NCBI GenBank assembly: GCA_029856365.1
Contig: JAHQWW010000001.1
Location: forward strand, 81,548 to 145,547
From: Candidatus Hodarchaeota archaeon
GTDB lineage: Archaea; Asgardarchaeota; Heimdallarchaeia; Hodarchaeales; Hodarchaeaceae
Length of the DNA stretch: 64,000 nt
Reading direction: 5' to 3'
The position numbers and the translations under genes are program-made. Positions 21,915 to 29,681 of the stretch are shown here, piece by piece (within the stretch, counting starts at the first letter, position 1; each line of letters begins with the position of its first letter). The notes beneath the pieces were generated by a model, which searched no databases, was not told where the DNA came from, and saw only the letters and a list, made by a program, of their open reading frames with translations.

Positions 21915-22715
21915 TCACCTTTTTTGGAAAATCAGGGCATAATGGTGATGAATATTTGGCACAAAGGAATATGGATACCCATAAGGCCGTAAAGTTTTTT
22001 GGTTCTGCAACCAAATGCGTTCCCCCAAGAATTTGTAATCCTCCCTTAAATTAAGGGCCAAATTAAAAGCTAATGGGTTAATTTCACCTTTATCACGAAT
22101 ATTTTGAACGAAAATCACTAAATGGCCACGTTCTTGTAAATAATCTTTAATCTGCTTAAAGAAAGAGACTAATTCTAAGAGAAAAAGTTCCTGTTCCTCA
22201 ATCATCCCTAAATCTTTAGGATGTTCTCCGTATTGGAGATCTAATCCTTTTTGTAAACGTTCTTGTTGATTATAATCTTTTTTTTTCTTTAATATTCGCC
22301 AATATGGGGGTGAAGTAATACAAAGAGAAAATTTTTTCACATTTGTCATAAACGTTTGGATTACTTCACGTGCGTCTCCTTGATAAACAGGAAGGTTTGT
22401 ACGAGATCGAGCTGTCTTTGCATACTTCCCATATAGTTCTATTCCGACTCCTTCTCGTCCACACTCATCACAAGCAACTAGAGTTGATCCTGTACCTACA
22501 AAAGGATCTAGTACACTATCACCAGGTTTAGTAAAGAATTCGATGAATTCTCGAATCATTGGAGGAGGGAATGATGCTGGATGTAAGTCTATTTCATGCG
22601 AAATATCACTAGGTTTTCCATCAGCAATGAACCATGATTTCGTAAAGCGAATCCATTGTCGTCCTGTGAGAGCATTGAGCTTGTTACGGGGGTCAATCTG
22701 TGGTTTTTCGTCCAT
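21915..22715 (-). CDS. DNA methyltransferase (N4-C/N6-A family) with motif I upstream of motif IV
   Basis: HPASFPPPMIREFIEFFTKPGDSVLDPFVGTGST, followed ~60 aa later by CITSPPYW. Stop lies 13 nt upstream of the rnj-like start. Confidence 0.85.
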   Translation of the reverse strand: MDEKPQIDPRNKLNALTGRQWIRFTKSWFIADGKPSDISHEIDLHPASFPPPMIREFIEFFTKPGDSVLDPFVGTGSTLVACDECGREGVGIELYGKYAKTARSRTNLPVYQGDAREVIQTFMTNVKKFSLCITSPPYWRILKKKKDYNQQERLQKGLDLQYGEHPKDLGMIEEQELFLLELVSFFKQIKDYLQERGHLVIFVQNIRDKGEINPLAFNLALNLREDYKFLGERIWLQNQKTLRPYGYPYSFVPNIHHHYALIFQKR

Positions 22716-22810
22716 TTTTAACCATCTTTACACATTTGGGGTCTTGCTTAAAAATATTTAAACCTTTCAGTGTTTTTTATCTCAATTATACTATCGGATG
22801 TTCTTGTGTC

Positions 22811-23458
22811 ATGAAACTCCAATGTCTTGTTTTTGATGTAGACGGAACTCTTGTTGACAACACAATTGCTATTATCCGCTTATTTCAGGATATTGTGAAA
22901 AAATATCTTGGTAAAGAAATGTCAGATCAGGATGTCCTTTCACTTTGGGGTCCTCCAGGGGATGAAATTTTCAAAAGTATCTTTCCTTCTGATATATTCA
23001 ATCCTGCTTGGGAAGAATTCCTTCAAAGTTATCGTGAAGCTCATTCTACGACAGGATTTTTTACTAAAGATCAATTATCAGATATAAAGAATAACATTCC
23101 ATATCTCACAATTTTTACAGGGAAAAGTAGAAATACCATGGCGATTACCCTGGAAAAGCTTGGTATAATCGATATTTTTGATCTTATATTGACTGGAAAT
23201 GATGTGACTCGGTCAAAACCATATCCAGACGCGTTATATCAAATTATAAGCACTTTACATTTGAATAAAAGTGAAACCCTTTTCATTGGAGACAGTCACC
23301 TTGACGTTATTGCTGGGAAATCCGCGGGGATTAAAACTGCTGCAGCTCTGTGGGGAGCTGTTGAAACTCAAAAATTATTAGAAAGTAAACCAGATTATAC
23401 TTTTGAAACTCCTCAAGAGTTTATAGACTTTGTACTCTCACCTAAAAGGTCAGTTTAA
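22811..23458 (+). CDS. HAD-superfamily phosphatase (phosphoglycolate phosphatase/PpaX-like)
   Basis: DVDGTLVDN (motif I), TGKSR and FIGDSHLDVIAGKSAG. Trimmed to ATG 22811, because the longer ORF from 22700 adds a non-homologous leader. Stop TAA abuts the next ATG. Confidence 0.8.
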   Translation: MKLQCLVFDVDGTLVDNTIAIIRLFQDIVKKYLGKEMSDQDVLSLWGPPGDEIFKSIFPSDIFNPAWEEFLQSYREAHSTTGFFTKDQLSDIKNNIPYLTIFTGKSRNTMAITLEKLGIIDIFDLILTGNDVTRSKPYPDALYQIISTLHLNKSETLFIGDSHLDVIAGKSAGIKTAAALWGAVETQKLLESKPDYTFETPQEFIDFVLSPKRSV

Positions 23459-27608: not shown

Positions 27609-27950
27609 ATGATGAGAAGTGCATTTCCTAATATCATTACTTCACTTCCAAGGGTAGATATCTCCTTGGAAGGCGTAAAGGGGTGGATTGCTCAAGGAAA
27701 AGACTTTCAGATTGTGTTCTTTGAGATAGAACCAGTAGGGATCCTTCCTCCACACAGTCATTCTGCCCAATGGGGGATAGTTATAGAAGGAGAAATGTCG
27801 TTAACAATCGCAGGGGAAACCAGAAAATACACTAAAGGAGACAGCTACTATATTCCCGAGGGTGTTGTACATCAAGCAGAGTTCCATACCCAATTTCGTG
27901 CTCTAGATTTTTTTGCAGAACCAGAGAGATACAAGAAAAAAAACGAATAA
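27609..27950 (+). CDS. Cupin-domain protein
   Basis: PPHSHSAQWGIVIEGEMSL and the later GDSYYIPEGVVH match the two cupin motifs. Confidence 0.75.
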   Translation: MMRSAFPNIITSLPRVDISLEGVKGWIAQGKDFQIVFFEIEPVGILPPHSHSAQWGIVIEGEMSLTIAGETRKYTKGDSYYIPEGVVHQAEFHTQFRALDFFAEPERYKKKNE

Positions 27951-27980
27951 CGTTTTCAAGGATATTAGTAAGAAATAGTG

Positions 27981-29681
27981 CTAAATATTAGATGAGGGGA
28001 GGATTTCACAGTCATAATATTGAAGGATAAGTTCATTTAACACTTGAATAGAATCCTTTTTTGAAGTTTGGTCTTCTGTTATTTTCTTTGCTAGTTGGAC
28101 AATTTGTTGAAATATAGGGTCTTTGAAATCAGGTTTTTTAAGGGGGAGTCGTCGAAGATTACGGATTGAGATTGCATTGGTGTATTTTGAACCCAAATTG
28201 AATTGACTTTGATAAAACCAACGGTAGAGAGAAGAATTGAGAACAGAAAGAATGTAATATAATAAATCAGGATTGTTGGTGTATTCTGATACTAATTTCA
28301 GGCTATAGACGTTTTGGGTTGTCCAGTAATTGTCTGAATCATATGCAGCGCAAAGATAAGGTTTAATTTTTTGAACAACAATCTTGGGTGAGCGATAAAT
28401 GGACGGATCTTTCTTGGATCGAAATTTAATTGTGGGGTCGATGAAATGTGTTGTTTTGATCGAAAATGCCTCAAAATCATCCCCAGTCAAGATAGGTTGA
28501 GTATGATGTGAAGTAGAGTCCTTCTGAATCAACATGTTGGTCTTTAAATCCTTTTCAGATAAAGATTTGTAACATTTTGCACAAATAATTTGAGGCTTTC
28601 TACTCGATAAAGGCACCCATTCTGAGCAATTTGAGCAGAACATGATTCCACCACGTTTGGAAAGTTCCTCCCCCCTTTGAACCACAAGAAAATGAGCCAA
28701 TGGACTGGAATTTTCATAAATAAGCCGTATTAATTGTTGAATTTGTGAATCAAAATCTCTTGTAAAGATGTAATCAATATTGTTTAAATAAGAAGATTGA
28801 GGAATATGGTTCTTGTCATCAACAAGAATAATGTGGTTTGAAGGAATTACTTTTTTAAATAATCCAATTAAAGAAATAAATTCTTGGGTGACATCTTTGA
28901 AAAGACCATGAAAATTTATTAAAAGGATCTGAAAATTAGTTACGAGAAATTTCCTGAGATAAATATATTGATTAGATCGTGCGACATTTTTTGGTAGGAG
29001 ATAAGCTAACATGCCTCTGTTTGGGGTCAATAAATTGGCAGCTTGATAAACAAATAATGAAAATGTATTGAGATTTCTCTTTGGACTTTTTGGTTTAAAC
29101 TTATAATAATAGTGTTCCCTTTGATTTTGGGTTAATTTTCCTCCCCATGGGGGATTCCCAAGAATAATATCGAATCCTTTTGTAGCAGGAGGAAGATTGA
29201 CCCAATTAGATATTGTACTCTTTAAGAAATCCCCAATAATAATGTTAGAACTTAAAGTCTTATTTACAGAGGCATGCATTGATTTTGGAACAACTGCGAT
29301 AAGATTCTTGCGACAACTTGCAACTACATTGGAATCAATTTCCATTCCAAACAGATTAGATAATAAAATCTCTAAAATTATATCATCTTTATTTGATTTT
29401 TTTACTCCTAATTTTTGATTAATTTCTTCTTTAATTGAGATAATAGTCATTAAACACGCTCGTAAGAATACACCGTCGCCTGCTGCACCATCAAGGATTT
29501 TAACCTCTATTAAAATTTCTTTTAAGTATTGAATAATTGATAAATCGTTCGTATCCAATATTTCCTCAAGAGATGTGTACGTAGAAGACGTGAGGGAATT
29601 CAACTGTTTTGTCAAATATTGATTGATTGCTATTTCTGTCATTGATTTCGCTAGAAGGGGTGGGGTAAAAAAAGCTCCCAA
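27981..29681 (-). CDS. N6-adenine DNA methyltransferase, gamma-class (Eco57I-like) with internal Zn-ribbon
   Basis: GAFFTPPLLAKSM, LDGAAGDGVFL (motif I), ILGNPPWGG (motif IV), CSNCSEW...CAKC. TTG start. Confidence 0.8.
   Translation of the reverse strand: MGAFFTPPLLAKSMTEIAINQYLTKQLNSLTSSTYTSLEEILDTNDLSIIQYLKEILIEVKILDGAAGDGVFLRACLMTIISIKEEINQKLGVKKSNKDDIILEILLSNLFGMEIDSNVVASCRKNLIAVVPKSMHASVNKTLSSNIIIGDFLKSTISNWVNLPPATKGFDIILGNPPWGGKLTQNQREHYYYKFKPKSPKRNLNTFSLFVYQAANLLTPNRGMLAYLLPKNVARSNQYIYLRKFLVTNFQILLINFHGLFKDVTQEFISLIGLFKKVIPSNHIILVDDKNHIPQSSYLNNIDYIFTRDFDSQIQQLIRLIYENSSPLAHFLVVQRGEELSKRGGIMFCSNCSEWVPLSSRKPQIICAKCYKSLSEKDLKTNMLIQKDSTSHHTQPILTGDDFEAFSIKTTHFIDPTIKFRSKKDPSIYRSPKIVVQKIKPYLCAAYDSDNYWTTQNVYSLKLVSEYTNNPDLLYYILSVLNSSLYRWFYQSQFNLGSKYTNAISIRNLRRLPLKKPDFKDPIFQQIVQLAKKITEDQTSKKDSIQVLNELILQYYDCEILPSSNI

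Follow-up and report, generated by a model that had tools for sequence, protein, structure and literature searches.

A 64-kb stretch of Hodarchaeales DNA (hereafter the window) was found to carry four genes coding for putative DNA methyltransferases (MTases) within 7.8 kb, at positions 21915-29681, and two more at 1453-5473. The window belongs to an assembly (G000) of 4.24 Mb in 204 contigs, which is ~84% complete. The original prediction, made from the letters of the window, had counted four MTases in 7.8 kb and six per window, and both counts are confirmed: the six open reading frames (ORFs) are all in place, they match DNA-MTase families in Pfam, NCBIfam and PADLOC, and their catalytic motifs are intact. 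That prediction allowed the genes to be either orphan MTases or the modification side of a defence system; the evidence presented here (conserved synteny, purifying selection and the lack of a dedicated nuclease partner) favours the orphan half of this alternative.

The methyltransferase block

Each MTase is named here by its length in residues. The block begins with M266 (21915-22715, minus strand), a small N6_N4-type MTase that matches Pfam PF01555 in two stretches (86.7 bits). There follow, on the plus strand, a HAD-IA phosphatase of the PpaX/PGP-like kind (HAD; 22811-23458; HAD_2 5e-36, and 130 bits with the PpaX model, for which the cut-off is 218); M712 (23459-25597), a shortened DUF1156/HmaB-type N6-adenine MTase; M255 (25617-26384), a beta-class (CcrM/RsrI-like) amino-MTase with a full-length PF01555 match of 135 bits; a thioredoxin-reductase-like flavoprotein (TrxR; 26395-27477; TIGR01292 301 bits, below the 343-bit cut-off); and a small cupin (27609-27950; Cupin_2 2.6e-13). 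M566 (27981-29681), on the minus strand, is a gamma-class, Eco57I-like MTase (Eco57I 6e-16, TaqI_C 8.5e-16). A divergent intergenic region of ~95 bp (22716-22810), which presumably holds the promoters, separates M266 from the HAD-M712-M255 unit.

The junctions within this unit are as originally described: the HAD stop codon abuts the M712 start (TAAATG), and a 19-nt spacer precedes M255. As the close spacing is conserved, it is plausible that HAD, M712 and M255 are carried on one transcript. The longest-ORF starts give proteins of 252 aa for HAD and 360 aa for TrxR, compared with 211-215 aa and 313-338 aa for the respective orthologues. Given the length of its orthologues, HAD most likely starts at 22811, and would then not overlap M266; the start of TrxR is probably near 26518. 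The label 'island', which had been given to these genes, is misleading, as the GC content of the region (0.34-0.38) is no different from that of the remaining window, mobility genes are absent from the 64 kb, and the flanks consist of conserved housekeeping genes. Downstream of M566, positions 29682-33753 form a gene-poor tract of low GC content (0.30-0.32) with short ORFs and a luciferase-like monooxygenase, and this tract differs among relatives.

In M255, motif IV (DPPF at residue 33) lies N-terminal to motif I (DVFSGSG at 198; FSGSGGT at 200), and the PF01555 match, which is above the cut-off, covers profile positions 2-219 of 221; M255 is thus of the beta class, and it also aligns along its full length with beta-class DNA MTases such as CcrM in the PDB (6pbd, 1.6e-18). 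M266 and M712 have the reverse order, with motif I first: DPFVGTG(ST) at residue 70 precedes SPPY(W) at 135 in M266, and DPFMGGG at residue 76 precedes DPPY at 498 in M712. The earlier remark that these two look like circular permutants with respect to M255 was therefore right. An HPxxFP sequence had been ascribed to both; it is present in M266 (and also in M255), but M712 has none.

M566 has an NPPW core, within which GNPPWG is invariant among orthologues, and a TaqI_C target-recognition domain; phmmer against the PDB gave nothing useful for it. Motif X (GAFFTP) is already reached at residue 2, in a start region which its orthologues share, so that M566 carries no fused nuclease, and no fused nuclease domain was found in any of the six window MTases. 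The two at the left end of the window, both on the minus strand, are again gamma-class enzymes: M720 (1453-3615; N6_Mtase/Eco57I) with NPPF, and M594 (3689-5473; Eco57I/N6_Mtase) with NPPY and a PADLOC match to PDLC03248 (1.5e-140).

In M712, an N-terminal DUF1156 helix block is followed by motif I, a ~390-aa insert and the DPPY motif. Besides its PF01555 match it has a borderline match to Pfam DUF1156 (24.7 bits, with a cut-off of 24); it matches HmaB (8e-31) and DUF1156_MTase (1.2e-31) in PADLOC, and reaches only 140 bits with NCBIfam NF042963, for which the cut-off is 1000. The insert comprises a helical domain and six CxxC pairs, at residues 143, 163, 189, 208, 230 and 261, rather than the four pairs that were first counted. 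These six pairs probably form three zinc (Zn) ribbons, and their cysteines are invariant among relatives except for C211 of the fourth pair, which is at least 90% conserved. In an AlphaFold2 (AF2) model (pLDDT 89), the MTase core is split by the Zn-ribbon and helical insert, and the protein ends in a short helical C-terminal tail. M712 is ~280 aa shorter than the ~990-aa forms, to which it is ~33-41% identical, and lacks their 165-178-aa C-terminal extension and 85-aa insert. No solved relative was found in the PDB: Foldseek gave generic Rossmann-MTase matches (TMq <=0.14) and phmmer nothing useful.

Distribution, synteny and rate of evolution

We searched 83 Heimdallarchaeia genomes, in which the window's own family (f1) is represented by 22 species genomes and other families are labelled f2-f7. 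Synteny was compared by tblastn over 15 loci, namely four homologue neighbourhoods (two of them in closed chromosomes) and eleven regions of species-level genomes. We found a single-copy orthologue of M266 in all 22 f1 genomes (67-100% identical), and only scattered, more distant homologues beyond f1. M566 is likewise single-copy, in 21 of the 22 (42-100% identical), and occurs nowhere else in the class. Twenty of the 22 have M255 at an identity of >=70%; G057 has a C-terminal fragment of it and G068 has none. Relatives of M255 are found as single-copy genes in f4 and f7 (37-48% identity) and in some other Asgard lineages (52-66%). Orthologues of M712, which are ~710 aa long and 52-97% identical (Hodarchaeales/Heimdallarchaeota), occur in f1 alone, in 18 of its 22 genomes; the gene is missing from the clade of G059-G061, and G066 has only a fragment at a contig end. 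In G060, M266, HAD and M255 are contiguous without M712. Families f3-f7 yielded no orthologues of M266, M566 or M712. Of the 22 f1 genomes, 14 have a syntenic orthologue of M594 and 15 have one of M720.

The 15 loci are collinear, with the order P-type ATPase, PPDK_N, P-loop ATPase with a winged helix-turn-helix (wHTH), membrane protein, a beta-CASP gene and M266 (both leftward), HAD, M712 and M255 (all rightward), M566 (leftward), YdjM and AlaX. The pairing of HAD with the DUF1156 MTase, for which a comparison with other genomes had been proposed, is kept across this collinear set, and HAD has M255 or M712 as its neighbour in all of the family genomes examined (16 loci). Only in the nearer sub-clade are M255 and M566 separated by TrxR and the cupin: TrxR is not there in L004, L005 and L044-L050, and the cupin has this position in seven of the 15 loci. 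Since they are confined to the nearer sub-clade, and M255 and M566 are directly convergent, with nothing between them, in the distant genomes, TrxR and the cupin are passengers outside the ancestral block. In one locus (L005), an inserted IS605-type TnpB gene (OrfB_IS605 / Cas12f-like TNB; 7922-9193, minus strand) lies in the presumed promoter region from which M266 and HAD diverge.

Restriction-modification (R-M) and defence modules are normally patchy in distribution and mobile. We found that the pairwise protein distances of the four MTases track the mean of three housekeeping genes (PPDK, AlaX and the P-type ATPase) closely (Pearson r 0.93-0.96). Relative to the housekeeping mean, M255 evolves at a rate of 0.70, M266 at 0.80, M712 at 1.35 and M566 at 1.59, with AlaX itself at 0.80; M255 is the slowest-evolving gene of the block. 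Ratios of nonsynonymous to synonymous substitution (dN/dS; Nei-Gojobori, against the closest relative) are 0.08 for M266, 0.09 for M255, 0.15 for M712 and 0.22 for M566, compared with 0.06-0.21 for the neighbours, and across 15-16 orthologues no variation was found in the S-adenosylmethionine-binding and catalytic motifs. Because distances track those of housekeeping genes, dN/dS is low and the motifs do not vary, the four MTases have been inherited vertically under purifying selection. Thus it is barely credible that they are decaying R-M remnants, inactive or on their way to being lost. The lack of a nuclease partner, and the truncation of M712 relative to canonical DUF1156 MTases, would agree with decay; however, the reading frames are intact across 15-22 genomes, motifs and dN/dS are as just described, and the short ~710-aa form of M712 is itself conserved family-wide.

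As the conservation of M266 equals that of AlaX, we also considered whether any of the small enzymes, M266 in particular, might be tRNA or rRNA MTases (m2G, m6A or m4C) mis-filed as DNA MTases, which would explain a housekeeping-like conservation. The structures nearest to M266 are those of archaeal Trm11 tRNA m2G MTases (6zxw and 5e71; Foldseek E 7e-10, TMq 0.48); 5e71 is matched weakly in sequence too, and M266 has the same linear motif order as Trm11 (motif I, then (D/S)PPY), collinear with RNA amino-MTases. The structural likeness is, however, limited to the MTase core. M266 (266 aa) has no THUMP or other RNA-binding domain in Pfam or NCBIfam, its TIGR01177 match (5e-8) amounts to 32.6 bits against a family cut-off of 316, and its matches to DNA MTases are stronger: it is above the PF01555 cut-off and matches the REBASE-derived Type II model MTase_II of PADLOC (PDLC03391, 2e-38) over residues 11-266, i.e. 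over its full length. Its own motifs are invariant in 16 orthologues. Outside the family, relatives 43-50% identical are scattered among DPANN archaea, unlike what would be seen for a universal RNA modification enzyme, and in two of the three DPANN relatives examined the M266-like gene is followed by an overlapping ORF, an R-M-like layout. M255, M566 and M712, for their part, have clear DNA-MTase architectures. On these sequence comparisons DNA is the likelier substrate of M266, and we regard the RNA alternative as highly improbable. ORFs overlapping M266-like genes by 4 nt, in DPANN and other relatives, include L061:4774-5334 (186 aa) and L063:5005-7029 (674 aa); a Pfam and PADLOC scan of these ORFs gave no match, and it is possible that they are unclassified restriction enzymes.

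Candidate partners and the depletion of CCGG

A further explanation, which we consider unlikely, is that the MTases supply the modification half of a defence system whose other parts are dispersed or unrecognised, such as a restriction-like effector encoded elsewhere. M712 would fit such a system by descent, as it belongs to the HmaB/DUF1156 family of DUF499-centred systems (bioRxiv 10.1101/2025.10.09.681413). We therefore give in turn the candidates for a nuclease, ATPase or helicase partner. No restriction endonuclease match was found among the block neighbours in Pfam, NCBIfam or PADLOC, so that the earlier statement that there is no recognisable nuclease stands as far as restriction nucleases are concerned; it had overlooked a gene of the metallo-beta-lactamase (MBL)/beta-CASP family (20534-21901, minus strand; Pfam and NCBIfam matches) only 13 nt downstream of M266. 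This gene is marked as RNA-type by its HxHxDH motif, its motif C His and its RMMBL domain. Its homologues are single-copy in f4, a family without M266; the closed genome G056 retains M266 with no more than a fragment of the beta-CASP gene, and G048 retains M266 with none; and in G060 the two genes are 15 kb apart. In view of its RNA-type motifs and phyletic uncoupling we reject the beta-CASP as a restriction nuclease for M266, and it appears from these comparisons to be a syntenic neighbour of M266 rather than an obligate partner. Two further conserved neighbours, the P-loop ATPase with its C-terminal wHTH (17701-19044, minus strand; weak nSTAND3/AAA match) and a polytopic membrane protein (19291-20493, plus strand) that has no Pfam, NCBIfam or PADLOC match, were found to contain no nuclease domain by the same three databases.

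A second candidate is a Dna2-like helicase-nuclease of 970 aa, which abuts M566 in seven of the 15 loci (e.g. L004:14664-17576 and L001:16075-18987, both on the minus strand). Neither this assembly nor the closed genome G058 yielded a homologue. Half of the f1 genomes (11 of 22), among them a closed 4.9-Mb genome and this assembly, have lost the gene; it is present in single copy in f3, f4 and most of f6, families without M566. Being absent here and widespread without M566, it is rejected as the M566 effector.

The third candidate could act in trans. Neither a DUF499 ATPase nor a helicase(-nuclease) lies beside M712 in the window block; a DUF499-like ATPase of 892 aa does, however, exist in the genome, on contig C18 (96229-98907; L052:6230-8908), between an alpha/beta hydrolase and UvrC/UvrB. 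It scored 110 bits in the genome profile search, yet hmmscan gave no Pfam match for the same ORF. Nine of the 22 f1 genomes lack the gene, and M712 is kept in seven of these nine (G048-G051 and G053-G055); the gene never adjoins an MTase. It is thus rejected as a trans partner of the DUF1156 MTases. No candidate, then, co-varies with the MTases, which are themselves core genes that evolve like housekeeping genes.

A second MTase cluster, conserved in every f1 genome, is found here on contig C3 (13677-33157; L038, L039) and comprises a paralogue of M266 (460 aa), a GNAT gene, a paralogue of M720 (772 aa), and DUF1156 paralogues of 702 and 725 aa flanking a PhoU-like/PiT phosphate-transporter pair. 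A further DUF1156 MTase of 867 aa is encoded on contig C27 (10842-13445; L040:5843-8446), between thioredoxin genes and TldD/PmbA, with a gene for Asgard actin a few kb away. Neither the MTases of the C3 cluster nor the DUF1156 MTase on C27 has a nuclease, ATPase or helicase neighbour. PF01555 matches number from 10 to >=31 per genome in f1 (from 17 to >=31 without the 1.4-Mb genome G057), and mostly 3-14 in f3-f7; f1 carries ~3-4 times more N6_N4 MTase matches than do other Heimdallarchaeia. By tblastn, the amino-MTase type is represented in this assembly by ~37 genes at ~32 loci.

We found 788 CCGG sites in this assembly where 2324 were expected (observed/expected, O/E, 0.34), and CCGG is the sole extreme outlier among 4-mers, the next lowest being at 0.83. 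The O/E is 0.45 within the window and 0.39 across 310 kb of syntenic f1 loci, and all other f1 genomes from which loci distant from the block were sampled are likewise depleted of CCGG (O/E 0.26-0.68; pooled 121/271). Samples of f2-f7 showed no depletion (pooled 327/294). As the depletion is restricted to f1, the CCGG signal and the f1-specific MTases share a phyletic range. It is independent of M712, since G060 and G061, which are without that gene, still have an O/E of 0.52. The surviving CCGG sites are not concentrated outside ORFs. GGACC/GGTCC is also low in this assembly, at 0.65.

The assembly also encodes a PF00145 protein (C5-MTase/Dnmt2-like, ~325 aa) at C65:3649-4581, on a contig with near-normal CCGG (0.53 per kb); most Heimdallarchaeia families have one copy of this gene. 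Deamination following C5 methylation by this enzyme is unlikely to be the cause of CCGG loss, as the gene is conserved in families without depletion and there is no excess of the deamination products CTGG and CCAG. In Halobacteria, CTAG, the target of a conserved orphan MTase, is under-represented (PMC6471742). By analogy with this pairing of a depleted motif and a conserved MTase, one of the f1 MTases may target CCGG. It is equally possible that CCGG was lost under long-standing restriction pressure from some endonuclease; a CCGG endonuclease would then be a candidate effector for the defence system considered above, and the small probability that we leave to that explanation is owed mainly to this point.

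Solitary methyltransferases and known systems

Because they are single-copy, vertically inherited and without a restriction partner, we interpret these genes as fixed orphan methylases and not as a mobile defence island: the four MTases of the block, together with M594 and M720, are, with good though not overwhelming probability judging from their sequences and distribution, persistent solitary DNA MTases that now belong to the fixed core gene set of a single Hodarchaeales family. That their substrate is DNA, that they have particular base specificities and that they lack restriction is inferred. Three observations weigh against this interpretation. The nearest structures to M266 are tRNA MTases, as described above. 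The family-wide depletion of CCGG resembles the trace left by restriction pressure, and a nuclease may therefore exist elsewhere in the genome. In addition, the assembly is incomplete, and the neighbours of its ~37 MTase-like genes were screened for nucleases only in part.

If the MTases are solitary, each would act alone and read a short DNA motif of its own by means of the recognition module that it carries: a small beta-class target-recognition domain in M255, the Zn-ribbon and helical insert in M712, the TaqI_C domain in M566 and the C-terminal half in M266. The DPPY, DPPF and NPPW enzymes would methylate adenine at N6, and M266, with SPPY, probably cytosine at N4. Where there is no cognate endonuclease, unmethylated sites would stay uncut, and the marks would consequently serve either the chromosome's own biology or a standing protection against foreign endonucleases.

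We tentatively extend this interpretation, in a form that is more doubtful than probable, to the family as a whole: f1 might have a hard-wired multi-motif methylome written by some ten co-inherited solitary MTases, several of them domesticated from defence systems (including three to four DUF1156 paralogues) and one of them targeting CCGG, with HAD perhaps clearing the nucleotide pool of methylated forms. Within such a methylome, M266, as an N4-cytosine-type SPPY enzyme, would be the simplest candidate for the CCGG enzyme. Hodarchaeales are usually placed nearest to eukaryotes, so a methylome of this kind, if real, would amount to an epigenetic system that defines a lineage among the archaea closest to them. 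Of all prokaryotic enzymes, orphan MTases that persist through a lineage are the ones most frequently linked to genuine epigenetic roles, for instance in replication timing, repair and the control of the cell cycle, and to our knowledge almost nothing is known of orphan MTases in Asgard archaea. The present results suggest that a whole set of persistent MTases is fixed in Hodarchaeales, including stripped-down relatives of BREX-related defence MTases. They also carry a warning for annotation, in that matches to DUF1156, Eco57I-like or Type II MTases in Hodarchaeales genomes should not be taken as evidence of R-M or Hma systems.

M255, M266, M566, M594 and M720 share their folds and motifs with Type II MTases. 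They differ from Type II R-M systems in that neither an adjacent cognate endonuclease nor a patchy, mobile distribution was found, and the window MTases are also without a fused nuclease or a mobility signature. M566 differs from the bifunctional Type IIG / Eco57I enzymes in having no N-terminal nuclease fusion.

The DUF1156 N6-MTase (HmaB / BR-MTase) belongs to Hma / DUF499-centred, BREX-related defence systems, and a C-terminal triad resembling a helix-turn-helix (HTH) has been described on DUF1156 MTases (bioRxiv 10.1101/2025.10.09.681413). M712 resembles these enzymes in its N-terminal DUF1156 block, its core split by a large insert after motif I, and its DPPY. It differs from them in several respects: the protein ends before the region that holds the published HTH triad, it has neither a DUF499 ATPase nor a helicase(-nuclease) as a neighbour, and the gene is a vertically inherited core gene with three further paralogues per genome. 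Of the components of an Hma system, then, the DUF1156-type MTase is present, whereas the adjacent ATPase, the adjacent helicase and the HTH triad are lacking. M712 looks like a former defence-system MTase that has lost its C-terminal tail and its partners and has been domesticated.

The closest correspondence is with persistent orphan MTases, known examples of which are the haloarchaeal CTAG m4C family (HVO_0794) and the bacterial enzymes Dam and CcrM. Such orphans have been described in Halobacteria (PMC6471742). Like them, the MTases of the block have no cognate endonuclease, are conserved vertically throughout a lineage, keep their motifs intact under purifying selection and evolve at the pace of average genes. 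They differ in number and arrangement: here, four to six MTases of different architecture are fixed in one syntenic neighbourhood, and a second conserved cluster is found elsewhere in the genome.

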